Position numbers and translations under genes: made by a program. A model generated the notes under the pieces. The model did not search any database, was not told the DNA's origin, and was given only the letters and a program-made list of their open reading frames with translations. Shown one piece after another: positions 32,037 to 59,404 of a stretch of DNA of 64,000 bases. The stretch's first letter is position 1. Each line of letters begins with the position of its first letter. The stretch is taken from assembly GCA_038064195.1 (NCBI GenBank), contig JBBTTO010000002.1, positions 76,981 through 140,980 on the forward strand, in the 5' to 3' direction. The DNA comes from Patescibacteria group bacterium. Its GTDB lineage: Bacteria > Patescibacteriota > Microgenomatia > Levybacterales > UBA12049.

Positions 32037-32290
32037 AAGTTGGGGGAAAGTAGAAGTCGGTAAGTAATCCCTACCTTATCCCAAATTTTATACACATCTT
32101 ACCCACAGGGGGTAGTGCCTAATTAAAAAAATGAAATCAAGTATTATAGAACCTCAACTATTTAAAAACCTGCCACTGTTAGCCTGTAAAGGAAAGTTTT
32201 TTCGTTTTTTAAGTAGTTATTATGGGGTGAAATCTCATTGATTTTTCCCACTTTTCCCTATACACTACTACAACGACAAATAGATATATT
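32037..32290. promoter_or_regulatory. Candidate oriC between dnaA and dnaN, with DnaA-box-like 9-mers and an AT-rich unwinding stretch
   Basis: ttatcccaa (32076), ttatacaca (32088) and ttacccaca (32099) sit beside ttaaaaaaatgaaatcaagtattataga. Confidence 0.45.
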
Positions 32291-40506: not shown

Positions 40507-41166
40507 TTAAGCAGGCTTGACTAACGGTGTATTAATATCGGAATCAGCTTGCGATCCCTGGATCGGACCGTCATTAAAGACATCATAAAACAGTTTAATG
40601 AGTTCTTCTTTGCCCAGTATTTTTGAGGAGATCGCCAGCTTGAGGAGCTGTTGATTGACCGAGTCAGCTTTACCGAGAAGTGACTTTTGGGCTGACTGGA
40701 AGAACGCGTCTTTTTGGTGGAGGTCTTTGCTGATTGATTGTTTGACGCCGCTTAATCCCGCTTCAAGGGCAGTATAAGGGATCGCCACATAGAAGGTCTT
40801 ATTCAAAACGACATTGACTTTGACCATTTCCCGCACGAATTCACGGTAAAGCCTGATATGTTGGGCGAGGAGCTCGTTTTTGGTCTCCCTTTCCTCCTCT
40901 TCAAGCTCTTTTATATAGGAGGAGATATCAATGCGCTTATTGCGGATAATAATCTGAATAGGGAAGGTCAGGGAGTTAAGAAGTGCCGCGTAAGCATAAA
41001 TCTTAGCGTCCTGTTCTTTTTTTGAGAGCAGTGCGAAGTTGCTGGCTGTAATTTCAATGACCAAACAGGCATTTCCGCCCTCAAGCAGAACGACGTTATC
41101 AATAATATCAATGATCTCAGTGAATTTTTGGGTAGACGCCTGACCTTTGTGAGCTGAATTTTTCAC
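40507..41166 (-). CDS. Hypothetical soluble protein translationally coupled to virB4 (possible T4SS accessory)
   Basis: The ORF is 219 aa and its stop abuts the virB4 start. Confidence 0.4.
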   Translation of the reverse strand: MKNSAHKGQASTQKFTEIIDIIDNVVLLEGGNACLVIEITASNFALLSKKEQDAKIYAYAALLNSLTFPIQIIIRNKRIDISSYIKELEEEERETKNELLAQHIRLYREFVREMVKVNVVLNKTFYVAIPYTALEAGLSGVKQSISKDLHQKDAFFQSAQKSLLGKADSVNQQLLKLAISSKILGKEELIKLFYDVFNDGPIQGSQADSDINTPLVKPA

Positions 41167-42377: not shown

Positions 42378-42570
42378 AGTTAATTAGTTCTCAATTTTCA
42401 CTGAGTTTTCAACTGAGAACTAAGAGATAGTCTTAACCACTGCCTTAATGAGAATCTATAGGGGTGGGCAGTGAAGAAGACACTCTAGTACTTACATGGT
42501 ATAACGTGAAAAATGTGCTTTCAAGGGCGTCAAAGTAGGTCAAAGCACCCTCTTACTGGATAAGATTTCC

Positions 42571-42999
42571 GTGAAAAGTCGCGCTCCTTTAGATTCAGAA
42601 GGAAGTCTTTTTAACTTGACTTTTATTGACAAATCAGGGCACAATGAGAGCATGGACCAGATTACGCCTGAATATAAAGAACAGGTTCAGGGGCAGATTT
42701 TGAGCATTATGAGCGCGGCGCTTGAGGCAAATACTCTCAAGACAGATCAAACGCCTGTCATTGCCGGTTTTGTGAGAGAAAAAATTGAAGCAGTCCAAAC
42801 CCACGTTCAGTTAGTTGAATTCCTTGCAGAGCTTGCGCAAAAGTGGCCGATTTTTGCATCGCTTGGTAATATGGAGATGGGTCGCGCAATTGAGGCACAC
42901 AAGGGTGAATTCACCCATGGTGTCATAGATAAAGTCAAGTCAGGCGATATAGATGGAGCTCTTAAAATGGCTCAGGGGTTGACTCCCCATGCACAATAA
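42571..42999 (+). CDS. Hypothetical protein
   Basis: A 142-aa ORF whose end overlaps the next ORF by 11 nt. Confidence 0.35.
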   Translation: MKSRAPLDSEGSLFNLTFIDKSGHNESMDQITPEYKEQVQGQILSIMSAALEANTLKTDQTPVIAGFVREKIEAVQTHVQLVEFLAELAQKWPIFASLGNMEMGRAIEAHKGEFTHGVIDKVKSGDIDGALKMAQGLTPHAQ

Positions 43000-45040
43000 T
43001 ATGGCTAGCACAACAGATCAACTCTATGGTGAACAGGGTAAAGAGACCGTGGCACGGGCGGCGTTTTCTGGTTCGGGTCGGGTTCATAGTCCAAGCGAGC
43101 GTATGGCACAGGATCTGCGCCGACGGCGGGAGGCCCAAGAACAGCCATCACACATCGTAGCAGATCTTGAGATCAAGCCTGTTTCCTCATCCCAGGTAGC
43201 CGGAGCTATTGAAAAAACAATTGGAGGGAAGTGGGTGGATGTCAAAGATTCTTCAGGTGCTATAGTTGGCAGAAAAAAAGAGCGTATTTCAGGCTCAGTC
43301 GAAGAGACGCGTTTTAAGGATGCAAGCAAAGCAGCTGAGTTCGTCCAGGAATTCCTCAAAAATAACTATGCCAATGTCCTCACCAGGCGTGATCGGGTAA
43401 CGCCTGTCTACAAAGCAAAAGATCCGGTTACCGGTAGGGAGACGCCTGTATTCCCTGACCAATTCATCGAGGCCTACAGAAAAAAAACCTTAGCAGCAGT
43501 AGAGGTGATCTGGCCGGATGCCAAGAAAGCCATGTCTGGCATGAGTGATCAGGCCAAGGAAAAAATGATGGATCGTATGCTCTCAGATCCTGCTTTTGCC
43601 AAGCATGTGCAGGCAAAGCTGCAGGAGGTCGTCGAGAGTACCCAGGAGGGGAAAGCTCTCCCACAAGAGCTTATTGATCGAGTGAGTAGTGCTAAGCTTG
43701 ATCACGATACTAAGGCGAAAGAGGTTGAGTGGACAGAGGCTGATTTGGAGGCAAAAAAAGAGGAATTCAAAAAGGAGTTCACAGATAAAGGTTCTGGGTC
43801 AATGGGGAGAGAGTATGATGCCATGCCAAGTATGGCATCATTGGAAGCAGATCTTGTTTCACATGACGACGATGTGCGAAAAAAGATGCGTGAGTTGGCC
43901 GATCTGAATAGGCAGTACGCGACAGCAGATAGGGCTAAGAATGCAGCTGAGGTAGCTAGGATTAGTCCATTGATAGGTACGAAAGAGGGGGAGATTGACG
44001 ACGCTAAGGATAGGAAGAAAGAAATAGAGCATAAGATTGCGCGTAGAAAAGAGATTGAGGATCGTCGAGCAGCTCTTGAGACAAGCGTTAGAGAGCTTGA
44101 GCGGAGTCTAGCCAAGAAGCAAATTGAGAGGGATCAGGCTCAAAATACGTATTATCTGACTCTTGCCAGTAAAAATGAGGCAGAGGAAGATCTTGCCAGG
44201 GGTGAAAAATCTTTTGTGTCGAAGCTGAACAATGTTACGACGGAGGCTGTGCGGGAATACTTGAAGGGTGAGATAGGTAACTATGAACAGACACGGGACA
44301 CGATCATCACAGAGCACGGGGATGATGCTCTGGTTAAAGGCCTGCAGGATCGCTGGAATAAGAAAGGTAAGCGTAATGAGTTCAACAAAGACACCATCAA
44401 TAGTGACTACAAGCTCTTTATCAATCAAGGGCCTAACGCTATTGTTCGTGCGACTTTGAGGGAAGGCGGGATGAGTGATGCTGAGATTGATGCCAAGTTG
44501 GCATCATACCCTGACTTCAAAAAGCGGGCTGAGTCAGAGGTCATAGAGCGTCTTTTGACCAGAAGACTCCAGACCGGGAAGATCTCTGAGGGGGAGGCGC
44601 GGCGTATTGTAGATATGCCAGGCAGCGAGGATGTTATTACGACCGCGCTTGAGAACAGAGCTAAATACGATGGGACGTATGAGGAATTAAAAAAGAAGGG
44701 CTTACTGGGTGGTGAGTTCATGCGTAAGCTACGTGCCTTACCCCACAATCGTATCGTGCAAATCCTCATGCTGATTTTCGGACTGGGAGGGTTGTTAGCT
44801 GTCGATGCTCTGGGTGGATTTGGTGTGGCAACTGCCGCAGGGGCAAAAATTGCAACAGGTGCTGGCTACGCAGCACATATAGGAGGAGTAGCAGCTGATA
44901 AGGCAGCACCTTTTGTGGGTGATGCTCTCGATAAGGCCGGAGCAGCAGTGAGTTATGCAGGTGATAAAGGCGGAGATGCTCTTAGCTATGCCGGAGATAA
45001 GCTAAGTGCGGGAGCCGACGCAGCAGATAAATATCGGTAA
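42989..45040 (+). CDS. Large coiled-coil protein with a C-terminal membrane/Gly-Ala-rich repetitive tail
   Basis: A charged heptad-rich body ends in ILMLIFGLGGLLAV and GDKGGDALSYAGDK repeats. Confidence 0.45.
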   Translation: MHNNMASTTDQLYGEQGKETVARAAFSGSGRVHSPSERMAQDLRRRREAQEQPSHIVADLEIKPVSSSQVAGAIEKTIGGKWVDVKDSSGAIVGRKKERISGSVEETRFKDASKAAEFVQEFLKNNYANVLTRRDRVTPVYKAKDPVTGRETPVFPDQFIEAYRKKTLAAVEVIWPDAKKAMSGMSDQAKEKMMDRMLSDPAFAKHVQAKLQEVVESTQEGKALPQELIDRVSSAKLDHDTKAKEVEWTEADLEAKKEEFKKEFTDKGSGSMGREYDAMPSMASLEADLVSHDDDVRKKMRELADLNRQYATADRAKNAAEVARISPLIGTKEGEIDDAKDRKKEIEHKIARRKEIEDRRAALETSVRELERSLAKKQIERDQAQNTYYLTLASKNEAEEDLARGEKSFVSKLNNVTTEAVREYLKGEIGNYEQTRDTIITEHGDDALVKGLQDRWNKKGKRNEFNKDTINSDYKLFINQGPNAIVRATLREGGMSDAEIDAKLASYPDFKKRAESEVIERLLTRRLQTGKISEGEARRIVDMPGSEDVITTALENRAKYDGTYEELKKKGLLGGEFMRKLRALPHNRIVQILMLIFGLGGLLAVDALGGFGVATAAGAKIATGAGYAAHIGGVAADKAAPFVGDALDKAGAAVSYAGDKGGDALSYAGDKLSAGADAADKYR

Positions 45041-45079
45041 AGTAATGGACCAACCCCAATAGAAGATTTAATTTAGAGG

Positions 45080-45427
45080 TTAAGAAGTTGGTGCGGGGCA
45101 GGTGTCAAAGCCGAAATTCTGGATACATTTGATGCCGATGATATTGGTGATGAAATAGAAAAGCACTATTGATGTCAGGACAATGATGAGGCCGATGAGA
45201 GCATAGGTCAGGATTTGGCGGGCTTCCTGGACTTGTTTGGTATCACCGCGTGAGACGATAAGTCTGATAGCCGCGTAAAGAATCAACGCTAGAGCTACTA
45301 TTCCGACAAAATAAAACGCCCAGTGGATGATTACTTGTAGAAAAGGCCCAATACACTTAAGTTGTGGTATAACACCGATTTTTTTACCAGTTGAATCAAA
45401 AGCATCTGCTGCACATGACCAGTTCAT
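45080..45427 (-). CDS. Small pilin-like protein (two hydrophobic helices separated by a short polar GDTKQVQEAR loop; VirB2/TrbC-like topology)
   Basis: It shares the TM - G(G)D/NxxKVxxAR - TM module with the three neighbouring paralogs. Confidence 0.45.
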   Translation of the reverse strand: MNWSCAADAFDSTGKKIGVIPQLKCIGPFLQVIIHWAFYFVGIVALALILYAAIRLIVSRGDTKQVQEARQILTYALIGLIIVLTSIVLFYFITNIIGIKCIQNFGFDTCPAPTS

Positions 45428-45473
45428 ATATTTACGTTAGCAAAGAAAGTAAGCAAGCACAATAGAGAAGAAG

Positions 45474-45884
45474 CTATTGAAGGAGTGAGGGCAAGGTAAA
45501 TGATCCAATGTCATTCCCGGTAAGGAGTTTAAAGACAAAGTTGATGACAAAGAATGATAAGAAGACGACTACGAGTCCGATAATTGCACCAACAATAGTG
45601 TTGCGAGCAGCCTCAACCTTCGTCTTATCACCACCAGCTGTAATCCATTTAAATCCACCAATAATGAGGAAAATTAACGCTGCAGCTGCACCGAGAAGAA
45701 GTAAAAGATTGAGGATTCTACTGAGCAGAGTTTGAGGGTCTGCTGAACTCGTTTTACAGAGACTATCAAATCCAGCCCCAGCAGGGCATAATTTTACAGT
45801 ACTGTCTGCAAAAGCGAGAGTGGCTACTGAAAGATAAAGAGAGGTTGCGGATACAGTAGCGATTAATTTTTGGGCAGATTTCAT
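45474..45884 (-). CDS. Pilin-like secreted protein (signal peptide, Cys pair, TM-GGDKTKVEAAR-TM module)
   Basis: IIGGFKWITAGGDKTKVEAARNTIVGAIIGLVVV is nearly identical to the motif in 45984-46361. Confidence 0.5.
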   Translation of the reverse strand: MKSAQKLIATVSATSLYLSVATLAFADSTVKLCPAGAGFDSLCKTSSADPQTLLSRILNLLLLLGAAAALIFLIIGGFKWITAGGDKTKVEAARNTIVGAIIGLVVVFLSFFVINFVFKLLTGNDIGSFTLPSLLQ

Positions 45885-45983
45885 AAATGTATTTAGTAAC
45901 TCTCTATCTATTTAGTCATATCTATTTTTACTTGTCAAGACCCATTTTCAAGCTGGAATTGTAAGAATATGGCTGAGGTATTA

Positions 45984-46361
45984 TTAACAAGGACTAGTAT
46001 TAGGTGATGAACAGTCCGGAGGATTTACGAGCATCGGGAAATTAAGAGAGCCTCCTGTGATCAGCTGGCCGACGAAGCCAATAATAAGGAAAGATAAAAG
46101 GGCTAATACTAGACCGACTATTGCATAGGTGAGTGTCCCACGCGCTGATTGAACTTTGGTCTTGTCACCGCCGGCTGTAATCCACTTGATGCCAGAGATG
46201 ATAATAAAGATGAGTGCTAAAACGAAGATAAAGAATAGGGCTACCTGAACTGCACGTTCTGCAATAATAATAAATATAGGTAGTCCACCTGTAGGTATCC
46301 CCTCGGGAACAGCTATTTTCTGGTTATCAATTGCGAGAGCGAGTAAGTGCTGCATAAGCAT
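45984..46361 (-). CDS. Pilin-like protein paralog (TM-GGDKTKVQSAR-TM)
   Basis: IISGIKWITAGGDKTKVQSARGTLTYAIVGLVLALL is present. Confidence 0.5.
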   Translation of the reverse strand: MLMQHLLALAIDNQKIAVPEGIPTGGLPIFIIIAERAVQVALFFIFVLALIFIIISGIKWITAGGDKTKVQSARGTLTYAIVGLVLALLSFLIIGFVGQLITGGSLNFPMLVNPPDCSSPNTSPC

Positions 46362-46373
46362 AGTGTATAGGAA

Positions 46374-46751
46374 TTAGTGCTCAGTGTGTAGTAGGCGCAT
46401 TTTTCGGACCAGTGAATTGAGCATGCGCAGTACTTCCTCAAGTAATGGAGTTATCTTTTCAAACTGTTCTTTAGATATATAGGTAAGCTCGTGACAAATG
46501 ATCAGCTGTGTCTCTAGCTCTAAAGCTGACCCATATGCTATCGCGTAAAATTGCGCGAACTCCCTAGATGATTTTCGGCCATATCCTTCGGCAATATTTG
46601 AGGGTATAGATACTGCAGCCCGTCGCATTTGCGAGACTAGACTATACATTTCATGATTGGGAAACCTTGATGTGATTTGGTAGATAGCCTTTACAAGCAA
46701 TATAGATTTTTGCCATACAATAAGATCCTTATAATTATGAATCTCACTCAT
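46374..46751 (-). CDS. Four-helix-bundle protein (family often encoded in 23S rRNA intervening sequences; TIGR02436-like)
   Basis: The 125-aa protein contains LIVWQKS...SIPSNIAEGYGR...ELETQLII, matching this family. Confidence 0.65.
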   Translation of the reverse strand: MSEIHNYKDLIVWQKSILLVKAIYQITSRFPNHEMYSLVSQMRRAAVSIPSNIAEGYGRKSSREFAQFYAIAYGSALELETQLIICHELTYISKEQFEKITPLLEEVLRMLNSLVRKMRLLHTEH

Positions 46752-46788
46752 CTTTGTGGTTTCTACACACTAATAACTACACACTTGC

Positions 46789-47958
46789 CTACTTAGTCAG
46801 TCCCGGGAGGTTGAGGAGATCAACTCCTATTACTTCCAGAATAATGATTGAGAGAACCAAAAACAAGAGGCCGACAAAGACAGAGGTGAGGCGTTCCCTG
46901 GCCTCTTTGACTTTCTCAGGATTGCCTTGAGAGGTCATGAGTTGATAGCCGCTGCGGATGATGAGAAGGAGGGCTATCCCGCCTGAGATACTCAGGAGGA
47001 TTGCAAAAAGCTGCCCGATAAAGCTAAAGGAGTCTGTATTAAGAGGTCCTATCGCACTCCAGATAGAAGTACAACCTTCGTTGGTGTTAAGTGTTTGAGC
47101 GCAAGGAGGAGGTGGGGGAAGAGGAGTTGGCGTAGGAAGACTCTTAGCTTGGTTAATCCAGATAGTAATTGGCTCAAGATATTGGTCATTGTCTCCATAA
47201 AGCACAATAGAGGTTGTCCCCTTACTAAAATCCTTTGGAAGAGTAAATATTACGCTACCACATGCATCCGTGTCGCATTTGGCTGTAGCGATTGCAGGTT
47301 CACCAAGAGCAGTTAAAACCAGATATTCTTTACTCGATGCGCCAGTAAGATGGATGCCGATGTCTTCTCCTGGTTGGGCAGGGTTATCTACCGCATTCGT
47401 CCTCCCATTCGTATTAAAAGCATCGATCATTTTATGATCAGTTGAGCCGCCACTCCCTTTGGTGACCACCGTAAATTTGTCTGCGGCAGGCGTGTCAGTG
47501 CCTTCCGAAGGTATTTTGTACACGCAGACGTGTAAGGTATTACTTCCATCATTTATATTATCCCCAATCTCTTGAGTACTTACCTGCCCTGAAAATGTAT
47601 TATTTGAACAAGAGGTATTGGTGAAATGCTGCGATGTTTTGTCGGGATCCATAATACATGTTCCATCGTCTGCTATACCAACTGTTTCTTGTGCAATAAT
47701 TATAGGTGCGGTGGTCTCGCAGGTCATGTTAGGGCCAAGAAGATTAATTACGTATGCCTCCGACTTTGGAATATTACCTAGCGAGATGTTGATAGGGTTG
47801 GGGTAGGTTACCGTCTGGTCGACTGAGAGGTTGCCCTGCATGCCTCCAACTGCTTCAGCAGTAAAGACCACCAGTGGATAAGGAATGATTATGCCTACTA
47901 AAAAGATGAGGGAATAGGAAAAACTTAGCAGGGATTTTTTCATACTTGTAATTATCAT
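46789..47958 (-). CDS. Pilin-like protein with a large N-terminal extracellular domain and Pro-rich linker (candidate tip or adhesin pilin)
   Basis: A signal peptide and ~280-aa N-domain are followed by a PTPTPLPPPPP linker and the shared C-terminal TM-QGNPEKVKEAR-TM module. Confidence 0.45.
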   Translation of the reverse strand: MIITSMKKSLLSFSYSLIFLVGIIIPYPLVVFTAEAVGGMQGNLSVDQTVTYPNPINISLGNIPKSEAYVINLLGPNMTCETTAPIIIAQETVGIADDGTCIMDPDKTSQHFTNTSCSNNTFSGQVSTQEIGDNINDGSNTLHVCVYKIPSEGTDTPAADKFTVVTKGSGGSTDHKMIDAFNTNGRTNAVDNPAQPGEDIGIHLTGASSKEYLVLTALGEPAIATAKCDTDACGSVIFTLPKDFSKGTTSIVLYGDNDQYLEPITIWINQAKSLPTPTPLPPPPPCAQTLNTNEGCTSIWSAIGPLNTDSFSFIGQLFAILLSISGGIALLLIIRSGYQLMTSQGNPEKVKEARERLTSVFVGLLFLVLSIIILEVIGVDLLNLPGLTK

Positions 47959-47976
47959 ACGAGGTTAGAGGATTGT

Positions 47977-49344
47977 TTGCAATTTCTAGGTTTGGTGATG
48001 AAAGTATATTACAATAGTAGTATGGAATCGAAATACTTTGAGTCTCTTTATCCAGTAGAGGCGCGGGATCAGGAGCTCGAAAAAATTGTCGGGTATATCC
48101 GCGAAGGGGTCTCCTCTCAGGTAGTCGGATTGCCCGGAGTCGGGCGGAGTACCATACTCGGGCTTTTGGCATACAATCGTGAGATTCGTCTTCGGCATTT
48201 TCCCAAGTATCACGGAAGTATTCATTTCGTCATGGTCAATTTTTCAGAGGTCAAGACTCGCCCATACCCAGAAGTTGTCAAATTCCTCTTCCTGTGCCTG
48301 AGTAATTCACTGCGCGAGCGGGAAATGCCTGAGGAGTATGAACATGTAGATACGTTATTCAAAGAGGCTTTGAATTATAATGATGAGTTGGTGATCAGTC
48401 AGGGCCTCAAAAATGCTATCGAGTATCTGGCGGTTGAGAGGAAATTGACGCTGGTATTATTGTTTGATCGTTTTGATGAGTATATCCCTCAGGTATCCAT
48501 GGAGTTTTTTACGCTTCTCCGCAGCCTTCGGGATCGGGCCAAATATCGTTTTTCAGTGGTCTTTTCACTCGACCGTCCCCTTGAGGAGACAGTAGAGCCC
48601 TCCTTAGTGGCAGATTTCAGCGACTTTATCAGCGGACATGTGATCTATCTTCCGCTTCTTGATGAGCCAAGTAGCTCCTTCAGGCTATCCTATCTGGAGA
48701 AATTAACTGCCAAGACATTGTCTGTTGAGCAAAAAAAAGAGGTCCTAAGACTGACTGCCGGCCATATTCGACTCCTCAAAGTCGCAGCTGAGGCGATGCT
48801 AGCTGAAGGTACGATACCGGCTGATATTGAGGCATTTTTACTTTCGCAAAAGACTGTCCATGGAGCGCTCATGAGCATCTGGAAGAGTCTGACTCCAGGT
48901 GATCAAGTCGATTTAAGTAAGGGTGAGATCCATGACCACCAGGGGGAGAGTTATTTACAAAAGGTGGGTCTTTTGGAGGGGGACCGGATTACGATTCCGC
49001 TTTTCGCCAAAGCGCTTGCGGACAAGCTTTTTCAGGAAAATGAAGCCAAAATAGTTTATGACGAGGCGGCAAATATTATCAAAAAAGGTGATCTAGTCCT
49101 CTCAGACAGCCTGACCAAGGCTGAGTTTCGTCTCCTTCGCTATTTGCTCCAGCACCCACAGGAGATCGTGGATCGTGAGACGGTGATCAGTGAAGTTTGG
49201 CAGGAGGCAAAGACTACACTTGGTGTGACTGAGCAGGCTGTCGACCAGCTGATTTTTCGTCTCAGGCATAAGATTGAAGAAGATCCCAATAATTCAAGGC
49301 ATTTGTTAACTATAAAAGGAAGAGGAATAAAATTTATGCCTTGA
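47977..49344 (+). CDS. Putative regulator: P-loop NTPase-like domain (Walker A with Arg in place of Lys, GLPGVGRST) plus a C-terminal OmpR/PhoB-type winged helix; paralog of 17227-18537
   Basis: The C-terminus VISEVWQEAKTTLGVTEQAVDQLIFRLRHKIEE...LLTIKGRGIKF matches the Trans_reg_C family. The N-domain resembles AAA/ORC-like ATPases. Confidence 0.55.
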   Translation: MQFLGLVMKVYYNSSMESKYFESLYPVEARDQELEKIVGYIREGVSSQVVGLPGVGRSTILGLLAYNREIRLRHFPKYHGSIHFVMVNFSEVKTRPYPEVVKFLFLCLSNSLREREMPEEYEHVDTLFKEALNYNDELVISQGLKNAIEYLAVERKLTLVLLFDRFDEYIPQVSMEFFTLLRSLRDRAKYRFSVVFSLDRPLEETVEPSLVADFSDFISGHVIYLPLLDEPSSSFRLSYLEKLTAKTLSVEQKKEVLRLTAGHIRLLKVAAEAMLAEGTIPADIEAFLLSQKTVHGALMSIWKSLTPGDQVDLSKGEIHDHQGESYLQKVGLLEGDRITIPLFAKALADKLFQENEAKIVYDEAANIIKKGDLVLSDSLTKAEFRLLRYLLQHPQEIVDRETVISEVWQEAKTTLGVTEQAVDQLIFRLRHKIEEDPNNSRHLLTIKGRGIKFMP

Positions 49345-49389
49345 AGTTAAAATTCGAATATCAAAGCACGAAATCCGAAATAAATCCTA

Positions 49390-49755
49390 ATGACCCAAGA
49401 ACAAATTACAAAACTTTATGATTTAGAAGAACGAACATTTGTGTTTGCGAAAGACACGAGATCGTTTGTTAAAAAGCTCCCCAAAACAGTAGGTAACATC
49501 GAAGATGGCTCACAACTCATCCGTTCTTCTGGCTCGGTAGGCGCTAATTATATCGAGGCAAATGAAGCATTTAGCAAAAAGGACTTTCTAATGAGAACAA
49601 AGATTTGTAGAAAAGAAGCAAAGGAGAGCAGGTTTTGGCTACGTCTGGTAGATACAAAAGACGATCCTCTACTTGAAAAGGAAAGAATAAGGTTAATAGC
49701 TGAGGCAACAGAATTGATGAATATTTTCGGTGCGATTATTAGAAAATCTGAATAA
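49390..49755 (+). CDS. Four-helix-bundle protein (23S IVS protein family), second copy
   Basis: The 121-aa protein contains GSVGANYIEANEAFSKKDF, typical of the family. Confidence 0.65.
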   Translation: MTQEQITKLYDLEERTFVFAKDTRSFVKKLPKTVGNIEDGSQLIRSSGSVGANYIEANEAFSKKDFLMRTKICRKEAKESRFWLRLVDTKDDPLLEKERIRLIAEATELMNIFGAIIRKSE

Positions 49756-49939
49756 CTATTAGTTTTGAGAATTTATATTTTGAATTTGTTTCGAGTTTCG
49801 ATATTCGTATTTCGGATTTAAACCTCGACTTATCAGCGTAGTTCTGCGTAATATTCTGTAAGGTTCCGCGATTTGCCTTGTAAGGTATCTAAAAGGTTGT
49901 TATCAAGTGAAAAAAGGGGAATACAGGTAGACTGTCCCC

Positions 49940-52900
49940 ATGAATGAACGTTTGACTTCGGAGGCTGCTACCACGTATGCTAAAGATGGAGAATTGTTTA
50001 TGGCCTCAGAAAACACCAAAGACCAAGAGAATCAGCCCTGGGATCCAATCGAGACTCCTTTAACTATAGCTAACGTCATGGATATCCCGGTTAAGACGAG
50101 AGAACAGCTTGAGGCAAAAGCTGCCTGGAGTCAGTTATATGGCGGGAAGATGCCAAATGATCCTACCGAGCGGCAGATGCTAGGGGATTCGATTCGAGAT
50201 GGGAAGCTCCCTGATGCCTCAATGCGCTCGGCAGGCAGACAGGACTCCGCAACCCAGCGTGAGCGCGAGGCACGTCAAAATACTGATCGGGATCCACAAC
50301 GAGTCCAAGAAGGGAAAAGAACAAAAAGCAATAGAAAAGAGCAACTGCACCGCCCTGAGGATGACGGCCCACAAATTACTCGGGATATGACCGAGGAGCA
50401 ACAACAGGCCGAAATTGCCCGTTGGCAAGCCAGCATGGACACTCTACTGAGGCAGGAGATGGCCAATCCCAACAAAGATAGGACATATTTTGAAGTTATG
50501 GGGGATCGGTTCAACCAGCGAAAAAGTTGGTCAGAGGACCCAAGTACGGCAGATTCGCTTGAGCGGGAGTTCCAAGCGCAAAACAAACGGTTCAGTGATC
50601 GAGAGGCAGCAATTGAGTTCCTTGTGAAGCAAGGCTTTCGCCGAGAGGAAATTACTGATGAGCAGGTGGATTTGGCTATCGACCAAATCCAGGAATCCCT
50701 CACTATCCCCAGCAGAATGGAGAGGATAAAGGAGCAGATTCTCAAAACGGATGACCTGAAAGTAGCCCGTAATCTGTTTGAGAGGCTGCGTAACTATGTG
50801 CGAGAGATCAATGATAGTAGTCAGGCGCCCGGTAGTAAGCTCCAGCTTAAAGATCAAACACGGACAACGTTGCAAAAAATAGCCAATCTTGGAGAAAGCG
50901 ATCTTGATACCCTCGAAAAAGTTAGGGCGCAGACGCAACGTATTCTGGCTGATGATCCGAAAGCAGGCTTAAATATCAAAAATTTCTTCTTTGAGGCTGA
51001 GACGGTTGATACAAAGAGGCGTGGTAGTAGAGGGGTACAAATCCGCTCGCTTGAGGAATTAGTCGAACTCATCGCTGAGTCCCAGGGAGGCAAGTTCTCT
51101 GCGGGCGGGGAATTTGAGATCATGAATGAGCGGGGCGAGATCCAGCTGCAGAATCTCGTTGCCTGGATTCGTCAAAGGATTTTAACCCTCCATGAAAATG
51201 AGCCAGATGATCCGATCAACACCTTTACCAATATCGCAGTTCCAACTTTTTTCCGTCAAATTAGTCTTAATGAAATGTTTTTGACACCAACCTACTTCCA
51301 GAAGAGAAAAATGGTAATTGAAGGTTCAGAAGAAAAGGGCAACCTTTCTATGCGTCAGGAAAGTGTTGATGATCAGCAGTATGAGAATTTTAAGATGAAC
51401 CTTCTCTATGAGTCATGGCTTTTTGGTGTCTCGCATAGTAATAATGCTGAGTATCGAGCAGTACGTGGGCAGGAAGAGCCTCTTTTTAACAAAATCGCCT
51501 CGCTCTATACCAAAAATCATTTCACCAAAGATCGCAATCGTTTCTTAAATATCTTCAGCCTTGCTAAAGTTGATAAAAGTGAATTTGATGCTGTAGGTAA
51601 AAAAGAAGAACAGGGGAGTGTTGGTAAGGCGATACAGAGAGGAGTCTTGGCTTACTATCACCTGTGGGAGTTAGTAGCTGAGAATAAAGTCAAAAGAGGT
51701 AGAGATGGTAAGCCTCAGAAAGGCAAGGATGGTAAGCCTATTTATGATCTAAGTCAAGGTGATATCACCAAAATAGAAAATAACAATTTCTATTCTACCT
51801 TGGGAGAGGATGGGACGAAGTATTTCTATCATTCAATTGTAGATCAACTCTTAACAGCCAAAGGCAAAATTGAGCTTGACTTTAAAGAGGCTTTAGGCGC
51901 TCTTGCAAGTGATCTGACACGTGGCGAGAGTGAGAAAGATCTCACGGATCTAGAGCTAGTCTTTAAGCATAAGAGAGATAAGTTCGATGCATTTATGACA
52001 ACACAGTTGGATATGAAGCCTGAGGATATAGCTAAATATGAGAGTAGCCCACGTGATTTCGCTACAGTTGTGATGGACAAAGTTTGGGCAATCAAACATA
52101 AAGACTTAAATATCTTTGATGATGTCAATAAGGAGCAGCGGATTATTAGCTTAGTCAATCATGCTGTTTCCTCAGCTATTGGAAGAAAAGAGGGGCTAGG
52201 TGTTCAGGACACAGAATACGCCGGAGAGTGGGCCTATACGATGCGAGACTGGACAGGGATAGCAGCACGTAATGATACCAGTGGTATTGGCTTTGATGCC
52301 TGGTCTAAGCTTATCAATTTCCAAGATTACAGAGGTCGTCAGGGGCGAGGAAGAAGTGGGGCTGGCAATATGTACAATTTTCCTGGATTTAAGCGTTTGG
52401 GGGCAACACTGCTTGATGGGTTGTTGGTACGTATTGATGGGGACGAGCGGAAAGATGAGAACAAGAAGTCTCTGATTAGCGTTTTGGAAGAATCCAATCG
52501 TAACAATACCAGGCTGAAGACTTTTGATTTTGATGGTGAGGCGATGAGACAGTTCTCGGCCAATCATATTAACAATGCCTTTAAAGTCTTTCAATTTATT
52601 CTTGAGAAGATGGAGACCAAGATGAACTCAATTGTCTCAATTGATAGAGCAGGAAGACCGGTCTTCAATCATGAAGCAGCTTTGCAGATCATGGATGGTC
52701 TTTGGCATGACCTCAGATACGCTTTTGATCAGCCCCGCTTTAATTTTGACACCACGGTTATTGAAGGCTGGGAAAATAGAACTGTCTATGATGCTAAAGG
52801 GAAGCCTGTTTTTGATGATGAGGGGAAGCTAGTCATGGAGCGTGTCAAGACCAATCAGTCGATGCGCCATCATATGTTCGGCGATGAAATGATAGAGCTG

Positions 52901-53299
52901 GGGCATAAAATGCATCATCGTGATATTACGAAGAATGCTTGGGGAAGGCAAATGGGGCGTTCGGCTTTTGCCTATTTGGTTGCTAAGGAAATATTTGCCC
53001 ATCGTCAATTTAATAGTGGGTATGTGAAATGGCCGGTTGAGCAGATAGAGTTGATTCAAGCTTTCTTCCACCATCAAGCATTAGAATTTGGTCAAAAAGG
53101 TGAACAGGATTATGATATGAAGATCTTTGCGGAGTTTTTCGATCATCATGAGTGGAAAGAGATTCTAGGTTTGGCTAAGTCGAGCTATCTGAGGATGTAT
53201 ACCGGAGAATATGCTGCGCAAGGAGCGGGTCTGGTTGGGGGAATGATAGGCAAGACAATTGGTGAGACTATCAAGCAGGTTGCAACGGTAGCTAAGTAG
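49940..53299 (+). CDS. Giant (1119 aa) hypothetical soluble protein with no P-loop and no recognisable catalytic motif; candidate T4SS-associated or effector protein
   Basis: A long uninterrupted ORF with coding-like composition, convergent on the VirB6-like gene. Confidence 0.45.
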   Translation: MNERLTSEAATTYAKDGELFMASENTKDQENQPWDPIETPLTIANVMDIPVKTREQLEAKAAWSQLYGGKMPNDPTERQMLGDSIRDGKLPDASMRSAGRQDSATQREREARQNTDRDPQRVQEGKRTKSNRKEQLHRPEDDGPQITRDMTEEQQQAEIARWQASMDTLLRQEMANPNKDRTYFEVMGDRFNQRKSWSEDPSTADSLEREFQAQNKRFSDREAAIEFLVKQGFRREEITDEQVDLAIDQIQESLTIPSRMERIKEQILKTDDLKVARNLFERLRNYVREINDSSQAPGSKLQLKDQTRTTLQKIANLGESDLDTLEKVRAQTQRILADDPKAGLNIKNFFFEAETVDTKRRGSRGVQIRSLEELVELIAESQGGKFSAGGEFEIMNERGEIQLQNLVAWIRQRILTLHENEPDDPINTFTNIAVPTFFRQISLNEMFLTPTYFQKRKMVIEGSEEKGNLSMRQESVDDQQYENFKMNLLYESWLFGVSHSNNAEYRAVRGQEEPLFNKIASLYTKNHFTKDRNRFLNIFSLAKVDKSEFDAVGKKEEQGSVGKAIQRGVLAYYHLWELVAENKVKRGRDGKPQKGKDGKPIYDLSQGDITKIENNNFYSTLGEDGTKYFYHSIVDQLLTAKGKIELDFKEALGALASDLTRGESEKDLTDLELVFKHKRDKFDAFMTTQLDMKPEDIAKYESSPRDFATVVMDKVWAIKHKDLNIFDDVNKEQRIISLVNHAVSSAIGRKEGLGVQDTEYAGEWAYTMRDWTGIAARNDTSGIGFDAWSKLINFQDYRGRQGRGRSGAGNMYNFPGFKRLGATLLDGLLVRIDGDERKDENKKSLISVLEESNRNNTRLKTFDFDGEAMRQFSANHINNAFKVFQFILEKMETKMNSIVSIDRAGRPVFNHEAALQIMDGLWHDLRYAFDQPRFNFDTTVIEGWENRTVYDAKGKPVFDDEGKLVMERVKTNQSMRHHMFGDEMIELGHKMHHRDITKNAWGRQMGRSAFAYLVAKEIFAHRQFNSGYVKWPVEQIELIQAFFHHQALEFGQKGEQDYDMKIFAEFFDHHEWKEILGLAKSSYLRMYTGEYAAQGAGLVGGMIGKTIGETIKQVATVAK

Positions 53300-53303
53300 T
53301 TAG

Positions 53304-55388
53304 TTAATGGCCTGCTACTGGTTTGACCTCATTCGGACTAAATGATCCAACAATTGGTTTAATAATTCTCCTTCTAAATCCCCCGCCATCATTAACTCCA
53401 CCGATTAAGAATTTACGAGCAAAACCGATACTTTGATTCGGGCCTTGAGGTCTAAAGGCACGCCCAAGCCCCCAACGGGTAGGCCCGCTGGCTAGTTGTT
53501 TGCCGGCCAAAAATCCGCCAGCGATAACGCCACCGACAGGGCCCGGCTTGGCATTAAAGGCTGCACGTACCCAGTTGAGCACCTCAGGAGTGATGAGGAT
53601 GAGGCCAAAAGCAACCAATAACCCGAAGTTATCAAAGGTATTGGTATTGACTATAAGTGGAGGGAGAAAGCTTGTCCCCTGGGGGTTATTAGAAGCAGTA
53701 TTGCTGGCCATAATCCGTGCCAGAACGAAGACAAAGATAGTTGCCGGGAAGACCATCAGATGTGCCAGCAGTGCTCGTATCCACCTCGAAAAGCTATATG
53801 GACTGCCCGGGAAAAGGCCGATCACTATCATCAGCGGACCAATAACTGTGTAGATAACGACATATACCAGCGCTCTTAAGAGGTTAAACCAGACCTTCAA
53901 AAGTGCAATAAATATCGCGGCGAGGATTATGAGGATTGTAAAGACAGTTGCTACCCATTTGATAGTAGACTGTAGAATATTCTTTGCGCAGTTAGCATAA
54001 TTCCAGAATCTGAGAGTAAAACCAGGGCAGTCAGATGTATCAAGTCCTAATGCTCCTGTTATCGTACGGGCAATAACATCCCCAAGCGTACTTGCTACAC
54101 TCGTTGATAGCCCTACGATACCATCGTGGTCTGTGATACCTCCCCCCCAGGACAGAGCCCCATTTAGGAAGACTAGGGGATTACTATTTAAGTGTAGTGT
54201 AAGTTGCTGGCGCAAAGAGTTATTGTCGCTATACTGATCAATGATTGAGGATAGCGATACACCAGAAGTAGAATACTTAACAAAGTCTGCATAAAGATGA
54301 TCTGCGATAGCTTCATCCGCTACCTTTTGACTGTCAACTAATTGGGCGAGAGAATTGTCAGAGATTGCCAAAAAGATCTCCCTGAGCGATCCACTACAGT
54401 TGGGGATATTTTTACAGATTGCTATTTTGGTAATGTCAAGTTTATTCTTACATTCAGGTATATTGTTACATCCAGTTTCATAGTCATCGACATCCTTAAG
54501 AGTTGCCTGAGATGCTGCAGTGAAACGACCCAAGTCGGCACCTTTGTATTGTGTTAAGATAGCATCCTCTTTGGCTTTCACATCTCCTACATTCCCAGCG
54601 CTTATGCCATCTCGATATTCATAAAGGATAAGATCATTTTTAAGATCACTAGGAGCAGTTTTATCTGTCGTAAAAGTATTAATAACGACATAGCTAAAAA
54701 ACCACATCGTGTCGATGAGGAAGCCGACTATAGCGTAGGAAAAAGTGATCATGATGACCGCCACGACGATTTTTGGAATTTGATTTTGGATGCTCATGAC
54801 AGTGCGCGGATCGATATGCACTCGTATCATGATGGCAAAGCCGATAACGACAAAAAGAATAGTCAGCAGAAGGTAGGCGAGGTTACGCATGATCAGCCAG
54901 GTAGACTGGAGTGATGACAGACCTTTAAAGCCTTGATTGTCAGGATTATCTTGGGCATAGATGTGCTGTCCTATCCCAAAGTTCTGAGCCAGATATCTGA
55001 CTGATTCGCTAGTCGAAGCAGGCTTAGTGTAAAGTGAGCCGATCATCGTACTCGTCGTCCCGAGTATCCCGCCGATTTGCGGGAGTCCGTTTTGTTGAGG
55101 GGCGTAGGTGAGTTTGTGATTGATCGGATCGAGGACGACACAGCCTTTTTGCGGATCTACAGGATCAATTCCGACTAACTGGCAAATAATTGCTGAGCTG
55201 ATATCAATGAGTAGGGACTGTGCCCGGGTGTGGTCGTCAGTCGCTAAGGGTGTAGTAGGGGGGGCGGGGCTGTAAGCATCTGATTGGGCATGACTAAGGG
55301 AGGTGGACTGAATAGTGAGGCCAGTAACGACAAGTACTAGAAGGAAAAAACGAACAATATAATAACTAAAGCGTCGGGGCAGAGACAT
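53304..55388 (-). CDS. Polytopic membrane protein with a signal peptide and large periplasmic loops; possible VirB6/TrbL-like T4SS channel component
   Basis: A signal peptide, at least 8 TM helices in clusters and a Gly-rich C-terminus are present. It lies within the T4SS-like locus. Confidence 0.35.
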   Translation of the reverse strand: MSLPRRFSYYIVRFFLLVLVVTGLTIQSTSLSHAQSDAYSPAPPTTPLATDDHTRAQSLLIDISSAIICQLVGIDPVDPQKGCVVLDPINHKLTYAPQQNGLPQIGGILGTTSTMIGSLYTKPASTSESVRYLAQNFGIGQHIYAQDNPDNQGFKGLSSLQSTWLIMRNLAYLLLTILFVVIGFAIMIRVHIDPRTVMSIQNQIPKIVVAVIMITFSYAIVGFLIDTMWFFSYVVINTFTTDKTAPSDLKNDLILYEYRDGISAGNVGDVKAKEDAILTQYKGADLGRFTAASQATLKDVDDYETGCNNIPECKNKLDITKIAICKNIPNCSGSLREIFLAISDNSLAQLVDSQKVADEAIADHLYADFVKYSTSGVSLSSIIDQYSDNNSLRQQLTLHLNSNPLVFLNGALSWGGGITDHDGIVGLSTSVASTLGDVIARTITGALGLDTSDCPGFTLRFWNYANCAKNILQSTIKWVATVFTILIILAAIFIALLKVWFNLLRALVYVVIYTVIGPLMIVIGLFPGSPYSFSRWIRALLAHLMVFPATIFVFVLARIMASNTASNNPQGTSFLPPLIVNTNTFDNFGLLVAFGLILITPEVLNWVRAAFNAKPGPVGGVIAGGFLAGKQLASGPTRWGLGRAFRPQGPNQSIGFARKFLIGGVNDGGGFRRRIIKPIVGSFSPNEVKPVAGH

Positions 55389-55500
55389 AGTCTTAGTGTG
55401 CGTGATTTGAGGTTTTCTGTCAAGTTAGGCGGAACATAAGAAATTTTAACAAATTTCAACGTTCCAGCCACGTTTAAATTTCTAGCGAAATTTATTACGT

Positions 55501-55759: not shown

Positions 55760-56344
55760 ATGGATCACAACGAAGAACTGCTTTTACCCGCTCCGCATGA
55801 AGAACTACTTCCGGCACACGCAGGCAATACGTCACAGTATGCTCTCAAAACACTGATTTCATGGTCAGCTCCGGGGAGACCTTTTCAGAAACGTAATAAA
55901 GAATATTTTTTTAACATTCTTATTATTATGCTGTTGGTTGAGGTAATTCTTTTCCTCTTTTCCCAATATATTCTGATGGTTTTAGTTCTTTCACTTGTTT
56001 TTTTAACCTATGCCTTAAATACGGTTGCTCCGCATGACTTCCAATATAAAGTAACATCTGAAGGAATTCAGGTCGAGGATCATTTTTTTCTGTGGCAGGA
56101 ACTCTATGACTTTTATCTAAAAAAACAAGGCGGAGTAGATGTTGTCGTGATCGGAACGAAGATGTGGTACCCAGGCGAGCTGATATTGGTGCTTGGTGAG
56201 CTCCATCCCGAACAAATCAGAGATGTTCTTATCCAGTTCCTGCCATATAGAGAGTATGTAAAGCCGACTTTCATGGACAAATCCGCACATTGGATGGAAA
56301 AAAACTTCCCTCTAGATCGGTCTTCTAATTCATCAACGAAGTAA
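55760..56344 (+). CDS. Hypothetical membrane protein (2 TM helices)
   Basis: The ORF is 194 aa with two central hydrophobic helices. Confidence 0.4.
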   Translation: MDHNEELLLPAPHEELLPAHAGNTSQYALKTLISWSAPGRPFQKRNKEYFFNILIIMLLVEVILFLFSQYILMVLVLSLVFLTYALNTVAPHDFQYKVTSEGIQVEDHFFLWQELYDFYLKKQGGVDVVVIGTKMWYPGELILVLGELHPEQIRDVLIQFLPYREYVKPTFMDKSAHWMEKNFPLDRSSNSSTK

Positions 56345-56395: not shown

Positions 56396-56469
56396 GCTCT
56401 CGTAGCTCAGCTGGATAGAGCGCAACGTTGCGGACGTTGAGGTCGGAAGTTCGAATCTTCTCGAGAGTA
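56396..56469 (+). tRNA. tRNA-Arg (anticodon GCG by hand-fold)
   Basis: Acceptor gctctcg/cgagagt (G1-U72 wobble), D-arm gctcagctggatagagc, anticodon stem caacg/cgttg with loop ttGCGga, T-loop ttcgaat. Confidence 0.65.
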
Positions 56470-56474
56470 CTTGA

Positions 56475-56559
56475 GGAAGGGTAGCCAAGCGGTTTACGGC
56501 ACCGCTTTCGAAAAGCGGCGTGAGTCACATCACCGCGAGTTCGAATCTCGCCCCTTCCG
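56475..56559 (+). tRNA. tRNA-Ser (anticodon CGA), long variable arm
   Basis: Acceptor ggaaggg/cccttcc, anticodon loop ttCGAaa, variable arm cgtgagtcacatcaccgcg, T-loop gttcgaatc. Confidence 0.75.
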
Positions 56560-56640
56560 CAATGTCGGAAGATTCAGCATAAGCTGCAATTTGGGCGAGA
56601 TGAGAAGCGACACTACGGAGTAGTTAGTCCTCTTGTAGGA

Positions 56641-56657
56641 AATCTCGCCCCTTCCGC
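56641..56657 (+). repeat. 17-bp direct repeat of the tRNA-Ser(CGA) 3' end (aatctcgccccttccgc), 80 bp downstream of the intact copy
   Basis: Exact match to 56544-56560. Its reverse complement, ggcgagat, lies nearby at 56594-56601, giving a hairpin potential. Confidence 0.6.
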
Positions 56658-56662
56658 CAAGG

Positions 56663-56734
56663 GCCTCCGTAGTCTAATGGATAAAACAGGGGCTTCCGGA
56701 GCCTCAGCTGTGGGTCCGATTCCCGCCGGAGGCA
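56663..56734 (+). tRNA. tRNA-Arg (anticodon CCG by hand-fold)
   Basis: Acceptor gcctccg/cggaggc, anticodon stem ggggc/gcctc (one G-U) with loop ttCCGga, T-arm gtggg-tccgatt-cccgc. Confidence 0.6.
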
Positions 56735-56763
56735 CCGTGTCAAACGCGGCTTTAGCAAGATTT

Positions 56764-57192
56764 ATGAAATTAGAATTCTCAGCCGGCGGTATCGTCGTAA
56801 AAAAAGAAGGCAATAAAATTTCTGTGCTGATCTGTCAGCACTCACGTTATAATCACTTAGGCTTTCCCAAAGGTCATATCGGGGATAAGATTAAAGGTGA
56901 GACAAAGGAGCAAGCGGCAGTTAGAGAGGTAAAAGAAGAAACAGGCGCTGAAGCAGTAATTCTTAAAGAGCTGAAGCCCATCACCTATTTTTATACGTTT
57001 GAAGGAGAAAAGCGCAAAAAAACAGTCTATTTTTTCTTAATGAAATATAGAGGCGGGGATATCACGAAGCATGATTTTGAGACGGAGAAAGTAGAATGGA
57101 TTCCCGCCCCCGATGTGGTAAAGGTTATTACCTATAAAGATGAAAAAGAAGCTTTTATTGAGTCACAAAAGTATTTTGAGATATTAATTTAA
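56764..57192 (+). CDS. NUDIX hydrolase
   Basis: The Nudix box GFPKGHIGDKIKGETKEQAAVREVKEETG fits the Gx5Ex7REUxEExGU pattern. The start is set at the internal M because the longer ORF would overlap the upstream tRNA. Confidence 0.7.
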   Translation: MKLEFSAGGIVVKKEGNKISVLICQHSRYNHLGFPKGHIGDKIKGETKEQAAVREVKEETGAEAVILKELKPITYFYTFEGEKRKKTVYFFLMKYRGGDITKHDFETEKVEWIPAPDVVKVITYKDEKEAFIESQKYFEILI

Positions 57193-57199
57193 TAATTAA

Positions 57200-57255
57200 G
57201 GAGGAGTCGTCCACTAAAGGGACTATCCACCATTTTGAATTTATTTAACAATCAA
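57200..57255 (+). repeat. Conserved ~56-bp tRNA-Ser leader containing a partial copy of the tRNA 5' end (ggaggagtcg) plus tccactaaagggactatcc; second copy at 59257-59312
   Basis: ggaggagtcgtccactaaagggactatcc is identical at both loci. It is followed by AT-rich tttaacaat and then the real tRNA start ggaggagtcg. Confidence 0.55.
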
Positions 57256-57339
57256 GGAGGAGTCGGATAGTGGTCCATTCCACGCGCTTGGAAAGCGCGC
57301 GGGCGTAAGCCCACGTGGGTTCAAATCCCACCTCCTCCG
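57256..57339 (+). tRNA. tRNA-Ser (anticodon GGA)
   Basis: Acceptor ggaggag/ctcctcc, anticodon stem cgcgc/gcgcg with loop ttGGAaa, variable arm cgggcgtaagccc, T-loop gttcaaatc. Confidence 0.75.
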
Positions 57340-59136: not shown

Positions 59137-59256
59137 TAGCTCAGTATAGCAAGAAAGCTAAGGATCAGAGTTGATCAAGATCACAAGGGAATATTGATAA
59201 GTACTCAGAGCAAGTATGGCTTAGGTATGTTCTAGATGGTATAATTAACCACTCTT

Positions 59257-59312
59257 GGAGGAGTCGTCCACTAAAGGGACTATCCGCTATTTTTAATTAA
59301 TTTAACAATTTA
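59257..59312 (+). repeat. Second copy of the tRNA-Ser leader repeat
   Basis: See 57200-57255. Confidence 0.55.
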
Positions 59313-59404
59313 GGAGGAGTCGCATAGCTTGGTCCATTGCGGAGGGTTGCTATCCCTCTGAGCTTTTAAAAGGGCTCGCGCAGGTTCAAATCCTGTCTCC
59401 TCCG
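59313..59404 (+). tRNA. tRNA-Ser (anticodon GCU), long variable arm
   Basis: Acceptor ggaggag/ctcctcc, anticodon stem gaggg/ccctc with loop ttGCTat, variable arm gagcttttaaaagggctc, T-arm gcagg-ttcaaat-cctgt. Confidence 0.75.

Follow-up and report, generated by a model that had tools for sequence, protein, structure and literature searches.

What placed a second copy of the 3′ end of tRNA-Ser(CGA) directly in front of tRNA-Arg(CCG) in a Levybacterales genome of the Patescibacteria? The two genes belong to a group of six tRNA genes called by ARAGORN at 55.5-59.4 kb of a 64,000-nucleotide (nt) stretch (contig JBBTTO010000002.1, positions 76,981 to 140,980), hereafter referred to as the window. 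A first-pass annotation had noticed that the end of tRNA-Ser(CGA) recurs about 80 bp downstream, and had proposed integration or excision at the tRNA gene, leaving either an att-like (attachment-site) scar of a lost island or a very small integrated sequence. The repeat itself was confirmed. The 17-mer AATCTCGCCCCTTCCGC occurs exactly twice in the window (copies X1 and X2), identical at 17 of 17 positions and 97 nt apart from start to start. Still only these two matches were found in the 64 kb at up to two mismatches, and the mean in shuffled controls was 0.03 matches, with two matches reached in 0 of 100 shuffles, so that the repeat stands far above the shuffle expectation. X1 runs from A58 of the T-loop through the 3′ strand of the T-stem, the 3′ strand of the acceptor and G73 to C74, and the 17-nt repeat is best read as a target-derived duplication. 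The segment 56561-56657 (equivalently 56544-56640, with inferred boundaries) is likely a 97-bp non-autonomous miniature mobile element that lacks an open reading frame (ORF) and targets tRNA 3′ ends. Elements with this architecture recur behind many tRNA genes, have ends matched to their targets, form tandem arrays and, in a distant form, are linked to genes of GIY-YIG nucleases.

The 80 nt between X1 and X2 comprise a 9-nt complement of the repeat start (X′), a GAGAAGC motif and two small hairpins (Table 1). X′ pairs with the first 9 nt of X2 past its leading A, and the X′:X2 stem covaries across the family described below. The inserted DNA ends in a hairpin module, in which X′, GAGAAG, one or two small hairpins and an A abut the distal tRNA-end copy. 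The module starts 33 nt past tRNA-Ser(CGA), on the same strand. The tRNA gene is left intact, since its last 17 nt (58 to 74) flank the inserted DNA on both sides. In the linker ahead of X′, CGGAAG (56566-56571) is complementary to CUUCCG of X2 (56652-56657), and a hairpin AUUCAGC-AUAA-GCUGCAAU is predicted at 56572-56589. X1 is followed by AA and X2 by CA, which gives an encoded CCA at 56657-56659 (...CCG-CCA), and 5 nt separate the end of X2 from the start of tRNA-Arg(CCG). No ORF is present within the 80-nt spacer.

Table 1. Coordinates of the repeat copies, the parts of the inserted segment and the adjoining tRNA genes in the window.
Feature	Positions	Strand	Description
tRNA-Arg(GCG)	56396-56470		First of the Arg-Ser-Arg run
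tRNA-Ser(CGA), intact target gene	56475-56560	+	ARAGORN; Rfam tRNA model 56475-56559, 55.1 bits
X1, first 17-nt repeat copy	56544-56560	+	3′ end of tRNA-Ser(CGA)
Linker	56561-56592	+	CGGAAG and local hairpin
X′ = GGGCGAGAT	56593-56601	+	Complementary throughout to 56642-56650 (ATCTCGCCC); forms the element's basal stem
GAGAAGC motif	56602-56608	+	Directly 3′ of X′ in every member examined
Core hairpins	56609-56640	+	Hairpin C, ACUAC/GUAGU, 56612-56624; hairpin B, UCCU/AGGA, 56628-56640
X2, second 17-nt repeat copy	56641-56657	+	Followed by CA, AGG and tRNA-Arg(CCG)
tRNA-Arg(CCG)	56663-56736	+	Downstream neighbour

Searches for a known RNA family were negative. Only tRNAs and chance hits were returned by Rfam 15, which includes self-cleaving ribozymes and tRNA-like RNAs, for the spacer region (expectation value (E) up to 10), for eight element-bearing loci (E up to 1) and for the whole window at the gathering threshold. 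Compared by eye with consensus sequences, the core gave no convincing match to a hammerhead, hairpin or twister ribozyme.

To place the segment among its relatives, 80 genome loci were collected via the neighbouring ORF of 194 amino acids (aa; 55760-56344), for which over 1,000 homologues occur in Patescibacteria, chiefly in Levybacteria. When all tRNA genes of the collected loci were scanned, the same plan was found behind tRNA-Ser of all four anticodons, one tRNA-Met and one tRNA-Arg. In this local form a linker of 4-60 nt is followed by X′, GAGAAG with a C or T, none to two hairpins, AA and a copy of the end of the element's own tRNA. It was present at Ser-TGA, Ser-GGA or Ser-GCT genes of L003, L004, L005, L007, L011, L013 and L061. 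Short members have only 4-5 nt between the tRNA and X′, and the minimal member, in L013, is ACAGGATGAGAAGAAATCCTGTCTCCTCCG. Locus L061 carries two elements with an identical insert of ~60 nt, the ends of which are matched to two different tRNAs. In L084, where the product of the neighbouring gene is 84% identical to its counterpart in the window, a core near-identical to that of the window element lies behind a different tRNA-Ser, with a fully compensatory hairpin C (ACUAC/GUAGU in the window, GGUAU/AUACC in L084). The consensus fold of nine local-form elements is a three-way junction in which 11 of 16 pairs show double changes. Decayed copies were seen in L004 (Ser-GGA), L005 and L063. On sequence comparison, the shared insert of L061, the L084 core, the decayed copies and the patchy occupancy of orthologous sites appear to be signs of mobility.

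Next, the orthologous site was compared. The Arg(GCG)-Ser(CGA)-Arg(CCG) cluster adjoining the 194-aa ORF is widely conserved across the collected loci. Among the 29 relatives with Ser(CGA)-Arg(CCG) adjacency, the spacer between the two genes measures 2-18 nt in 15 and 35-314 nt in 14, making it an insertion hotspot in relatives, and a tRNA-end repeat was found in L006 only. There, next to a neighbouring gene 72% identical to that of the window, the repeat is that of the locus's own, different tRNA-Ser(CGA) end, AATCTCCCTCCCTCCGC, and X′ ahead of GAGAAGC reads GGAGGGAGAT, altered to fit AATCTCCCTCCCTCCGC. In L083, a 99% twin contig from Hainich groundwater, the whole region is identical to that of the window. 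Conservation of the same spacer and repeat in all relatives, which the first-pass annotation had named as the observation that would speak against integration, thus failed to hold, and the comparison points to insertion. The long Ser(CGA)-Arg(CCG) spacers of L017, L066 and L074 contain tRNA-Arg-like or other tRNA fragments uncalled by ARAGORN, which by their sequence appear to be degenerate extra tRNA copies. Two matches to the 17-mer in viral contigs were set aside: that in L002 is a chance hit inside coding sequence, and that in L001, a tRNA-Ser 3′ half beside a DDE transposase and Planctomycete-type genes with no integrase, is uninformative.

Membership of the window copy was assessed with covariance models. 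For model R1, 70 elements were used, 57 of them metagenomic and 13 from Levybacteria; the window, L083, L006, L061 and L084 contributed none. In the window it gave a sole significant match, at 56593-56657 (30.9 bits, E ~1.5e-5); the next matches, at no more than 13 bits, were T-arms of real tRNAs. The model also recovered the held-out elements of L006, L061 (twice) and L084. In the structure of the R1 family 90% of cells are paired, compared with 73% in shuffles, and double-change cells number 151 compared with 47; much the same covariation was obtained for the distant form on its own and for the local form. The window copy has a same-strand tRNA upstream, a copy of that tRNA's own end starting from A58, X′ followed by GAGAAG, and a model score above noise. 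Its membership of a local family of tRNA-end-duplicating mini-elements is well supported, and within that family it is an ordinary, degenerate member.

The distant form of the module, first seen in several Levybacteria elements, has a longer and more conserved core, GAGAAGTTTAY-CCTGAGC-loop-GYCGAAGG-RA. A metagenome scan with this core pattern matched at least 120 contigs. Among the matches listed, 102 of 142 cores lie no more than 200 nt downstream of a same-strand tRNA, and the tRNA identities comprise twenty amino acids (Trp, Thr, Leu, Met, Lys, Asn, His and others) and one tRNA that ARAGORN left unassigned. Most of these cores are followed by an exact 16-18 nt copy of the end of their own tRNA, which in 84 of 97 cases begins with exactly two T-loop nucleotides (59-60) before the T-stem strand, and tandem arrays of up to five units were found in 13 of 120 loci. 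The GAGAAG motif never varies in the alignment of distant-form elements (A6); in the mixed alignment (A3), two of the six positions show slight variation and the remaining four show none. In viral contigs the local-form pattern gave 0 hits and the distant-form pattern 18, of which 16 were chance coding matches and two were real elements (L094 and L095), the latter at a provirus edge behind tRNA-Lys. Two loci show a further arrangement: in L084 (127-230) and in L234 (978-1100) the distal tRNA-end copy is followed by the left end of another element, which in L234 is of the same family and in L084 of a second family (TTCGTCCGTCGAAGCGGAC...). Since these distal copies precede another left end, elements stack at the regenerated target.

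The distant form also shows how X′ relates to its target. Where the two strands of the T-stem differ and pairing covers the whole 5-nt stem, X′ fits the complement of the 3′ strand, not of the 5′ strand; elsewhere its pairing is often confined to the first 3-5 nt. The length of X′:X pairing has a mode of 5 nt and a maximum of 10, and 43% of stems of at least 5 bp reach at least 7 bp, compared with ~6% by chance. Where the two tRNA-end copies differ, X′ fits copy 1 better in 10 cases and copy 2 in 6, with 4 ties. The idea that X′ is kept by compensatory change was therefore unsupported, as a diverged X2 is not tracked by X′; the match looks set at insertion rather than by later selection.

These data bear on another conceivable origin of the second tRNA end, a decayed tandem duplicate of tRNA-Ser(CGA) of which only the 3′ end is left. 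Spacer and repeat together span 97 nt, close to the length of tRNA-Ser, and GCGAG in X′ equals the 5′ strand of the T-stem. However, X′ in the family follows the complement of the 3′ strand, the position of the supposed T-loop holds the GAGAAG-plus-hairpin module common to elements at unrelated tRNAs, and the gap between tRNA and X′ in short members leaves only 4-5 nt. Moreover, no tRNA-like match was obtained in 56561-56660 at E up to 10, and ARAGORN called no second tRNA there. We regard a decayed duplicate as scarcely credible.

Full-length copies of the distant form encode a protein. Their order is tRNA, left end (ACTTCGGCAAGCTCAGTGC...), a stand-alone GIY-YIG ORF of 95-102 aa, X′ with the core, and the tRNA-end copy. 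In L143 and L207, and in the interrupted copy L130, the ORF of 99-102 aa matches Pfam PF01541 with E of 1e-13 to 1e-17, and in L143 and L207 X′ and the core overlap its stop. Loci L223, L229, L233 and L234/L235, retrieved through four GIY-YIG proteins without any DNA pattern, have the same layout behind tRNA-Glu or tRNA-Lys (the upstream tRNA is decayed in L223), and R1 matches the right-end module at the 3′ end of those four ORFs with 20.6-54.8 bits. Across all loci retrieved in the analysis, 30 of 40 GIY-YIG ORFs lie within ~200 nt (4-197, mostly 35-150) of the end of a tRNA upstream on the same strand. In the set selected with the core pattern, copies without an ORF exceed those with one by more than 30:1, and inserts measure 60-130 nt without the ORF and ~450-500 nt with it. 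The protein has hundreds of homologues, mostly in Patescibacteria and annotated only as "GIY-YIG nuclease family protein". Its nearest solved structures are the UPF0213 proteins 1ZG2 and 1YWL, and the family nuclease is of the UPF0213/Slx1-like stand-alone branch. A 2006 survey described the stand-alone Slx1-like GIY-YIG branch as repair enzymes without auxiliary domains (PMC1564403).

Several further GIY-YIG sub-families with other leaders were seen. In L229, L234 and L233 the left end (ACTTCGGCAAGCTCAG) is complementary to the 3′ coding region of the ORF (ACTGAGTTCGCTGAAG, encoding TEFAEE), which places the ORF inside a long-range stem; ORF-less long forms retain exactly that stem, as a hairpin. 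A covarying helix between the left end and the core was also considered and dropped, as no consistent covariation was found. In L054 (3643-3911), L135, L214 and L189 the core-like 3′ end of a GIY-YIG ORF is directly followed by an entire tRNA gene, starting with its 5′ end, rather than by a 3′ fragment, and in L189 six GIY-YIG ORFs are interleaved with tRNAs.

With these relatives at hand, the integrase reading of the locus can be weighed. A direct repeat from the T-loop to the tRNA 3′ end has the classic shape of an att duplication, and a tyrosine-integrase island that entered tRNA-Ser(CGA) and was mostly deleted, leaving attL and attR 80 bp apart, would also suit a Ser-Arg spacer that is a hotspot for insertion in relatives. 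But the 80-nt interior is conserved at dozens of other tRNAs, and independent random deletions could not repeat one interior; precise excision would leave a single repeat copy; and only 80 nt lie between the repeats. No integrase, recombinase or reverse transcriptase was found among 39 of the 41 window ORFs of at least 180 aa, the ones scanned, and the autonomous relatives carry GIY-YIG genes, not integrases. An att scar is therefore very improbable. The proposal of an event at the tRNA gene survives in part, as the repeat is insertion-derived and lies at a tRNA 3′ end, while its att and integrase origin and the lost island do not. The alternative of a very small integrated sequence was essentially correct: the insert is a conserved structured unit matched by R1.

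Does the window copy derive from the GIY-YIG-bearing family? It has neither the core of the GIY-YIG-linked form (GAGAAGTTTAYCCTGAGC..GYCGAAGGRA), with its hairpin CCUGAG..CGAAGG and tandem G.A pairs, its own hairpins being simpler, nor a left end ACTTCGRCAAGCTCAGTGC abutting the tRNA 3′ end, nor an ORF between left end and right-end module, the last absence being expected of a non-autonomous copy. Descent is nevertheless probable on comparative grounds, since both forms share position, architecture, GAGAAG and clade, and since intermediates exist (L007 and L011). By-eye similarity of the linker to a left end was not borne out by the left-end profile search.

Several observations weigh against the interpretation of the segment as a mobile element of this descent. 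A profile of the family left end (nhmmer) detected none in the window linker (56561-56592), and found the left end of one long local-form element (L061) only weakly, with E of 0.48. Model R2, for which only distant-form elements were used and their tRNA-end copies were cut back to 9 nt, ranked the window element first, but at 16.6 bits and E ~0.02, with only the stem and GAGAAG aligned. No local-form element with an ORF was seen, and tblastn found no GIY-YIG gene in the whole 64-kb window. The GIY-YIG domain, at 95 aa, has no evident DNA-binding portion.

To the same side belong the features that would suit an RNA element serving the host. Here the segment would form a tRNA-like minihelix, in which CGGAAG:CUUCCG makes an acceptor-like stem on the X′:X2 stem and the molecule ends in CCA, with a role in processing of the tRNA operon, in stability or 3′-end maturation, or as a decoy for a tRNA-binding enzyme. 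The predicted fold of 56561-56662 has -35.1 kcal/mol (z = -2.85), CCA is encoded at copy 2, the hairpins covary, and in several long forms the 3′ strand of the acceptor pairs with a segment further upstream (e.g. GATCTG/CAGATC in L095). Neither a terminator- nor a promoter-like site was found between the three tRNAs of the Arg-Ser-Arg run, and no terminator separates the element from them. On the other hand, occupancy is patchy and copies decay, X′ does not track the adjacent copy, and in 31 of 97 metagenome cases a T-run terminator lies between tRNA and module, so that the module often falls outside the transcript of the tRNA. Both the tandem arrays and the link with a nuclease gene are typical of selfish DNA. 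A host function thus seems unlikely, and the mobile element remains the preferred reading. In the window the element may be co-transcribed with the Arg-Ser-Arg cluster and trimmed off by tRNA processing, in which case it would probably be neutral to the host.

How might such an element move? As the window copy has no gene and no left end, and no such nuclease is encoded in the 64 kb, any movement would depend on a nuclease from elsewhere, acting in trans. We propose that the nuclease would cut tRNA genes in or near the T-loop and 3′ end and that the element would be copied in by break repair or through a staggered cut. In the first version, a cut in the T-loop would be repaired with a filled allele as template, X1, the element and X2 being copied across, with annealing at X2; this would explain the second tRNA end, survival of the tRNA and growth of arrays. 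The outcome would be no different with a staggered cut at 58|59 and 74|75. Tandem arrays would follow because each insertion recreates the target, and X′ may reflect base-pairing or microhomology with the target at insertion. The empty site would read ...TTCGAATCTCGCCCCTTCCGCCAAGG-tRNA-Arg, the inserted segment then being 97 bp and the duplication 17 bp.

An RNA-mediated route, similar to that of short interspersed nuclear elements (SINEs), is a rival on mechanism only. The tRNA-end copy of a transcript would anneal to a tRNA gene nicked, in the manner of Penelope-like elements, by the GIY-YIG protein, and would prime reverse transcription by an enzyme provided in trans. The 3′-terminal segment of tRNA is the one that retroelements use for priming, and the duplicated segment is precisely the 3′-terminal 16-18 nt of the tRNA. 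The X′:X mode of 5 nt is what microhomology priming would yield, and tandem arrays fit as well. In L112, L139, L125 and L183 a duplication of 60-75 nt, from T-loop position 59 to about the terminator U-run, flanks X′ and core of ~45 nt; the end of the duplication coincides with the U-run in L139 and L183 and lies 12-14 nt past it in L112 and L125. The duplicated unit in these four looks roughly transcript-defined, matching the transcript span as this route would have it. But no element seen encodes a reverse transcriptase, nor do the scanned window ORFs, and many elements sit after terminators. We consider RNA-mediated copying improbable.

By analogy with guide-dependent nucleases, the right-end module together with the 16-17 nt tRNA-end copy, the 5-10 nt X′ or both could conceivably act as a nucleic-acid guide that leads the ~95-aa GIY-YIG domain to tRNA genes. 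This is a speculative proposal to which we give little weight; if true, the family would be a new, extremely small guide-dependent GIY-YIG homing or transposition system, with the window copy as an ORF-less satellite, and target choice of this kind could yield a very small programmable nuclease.

The family resembles several known systems in part. Phage T4 SegB (PMC2330249) is likewise a selfish GIY-YIG gene between tRNA genes, presumed to spread by cutting gene-free alleles followed by repair copying. Unlike the family described here, SegB shows no duplication of tRNA 3′ ends, no terminal hairpin module and no ORF-less miniatures; Seg proteins are larger, have DNA-binding domains and are phage rather than bacterial chromosomal genes, whereas the nuclease here is of the minimal UPF0213/Slx1-like type. 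Tyrosine-integrase islands and prophages at tRNA genes also preserve the gene through a direct repeat from in or near the T-loop. The present family differs in the lack of an integrase, inserts of 60-130 or ~450-500 nt, structured conserved ends, a target-complementary X′ and tandem arrays. In IS200/IS605 elements with TnpB/OMEGA, a small nuclease ORF overlaps a structured right end that is followed by ~16 nt of target identity, and ORF-less copies far outnumber full ones. Here, however, the nuclease is GIY-YIG, not RuvC, TnpA is absent, and the target segment is duplicated on the left with an intact target persisting, so that the likeness to OMEGA is an architectural analogy and not membership. 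Miniature inverted-repeat transposable elements (MITEs) are, similarly, short ORF-less multi-copy derivatives of an autonomous element flanked by a target duplication. In the present family the duplication is 16-18 bp and always of the same tRNA segment, the window copy has no terminal inverted repeats, and the complementarity between left and right ends of full copies is partial and non-covarying. Penelope-like retroelements combine a GIY-YIG nuclease with mobility and form tandem or partial-tandem copies, but they are eukaryotic and encode a reverse transcriptase, and the family here encodes none.

No description of tRNA-end-duplicating GIY-YIG elements or of the core sequence was found in the searchable literature (subscription journals lie outside its coverage) or in Rfam, and the element family is apparently widespread and undescribed. 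It explains "partial tRNA" repeats that pipelines and readers would otherwise take for prophage att sites or pseudogenes, and illustrates how mobile elements can exploit tRNA genes while leaving them intact, and how abundant they can be even in genomes as small as those of Patescibacteria. The combination of a minimal UPF0213/Slx1-like GIY-YIG nuclease, a structured end and a target-matched segment suggests a testable role for this protein family.

The remainder of the window gives the genomic context. The genes dnaA and dnaN lie at 30654-33403, beside the turn of the cumulative GC skew (~26-34 kb), and this is probably the region of the chromosomal replication origin. Just upstream of the tRNA cluster, 41163-55388 holds type IV secretion system (T4SS) and pilus genes (PrgI-like, T4SS pilin, TrbL/VirB6) and large ORFs without a Pfam match. 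The exact product of the window NUDIX gene had no match on record.

The tRNA clusters of Patescibacteria are hotspots of insertion, and the window alone appears to carry two such remnants. The second lies on the minus strand at 55395-55499, where a conserved leader of ~75 nt (ACGTAAnAAATT...AACGTTGCTGGAACGTTGAAATTT...TTACGTTYCGCC) stands directly 3′ of tRNA-Ser(TGA). This leader was also seen after tRNA ends in L036 and L080 and, in L037, ahead of another small GIY-YIG ORF; judged by this distribution, it looks like another ORF-less remnant at a tRNA flank. In addition, an 86-nt repeat, 84% identical between its copies at 57185-57270 and 59242-59327, lies upstream of tRNA-Ser(GGA) and tRNA-Ser(GCT). 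It includes a 12-nt copy of the tRNA start (AAGGAGGAGTCG), 56 nt ahead of the real start, and GGGACTATCC, which is complementary to the tRNA D-arm, and may be the 5′-end counterpart, in mirror image, of the 3′-end duplication.

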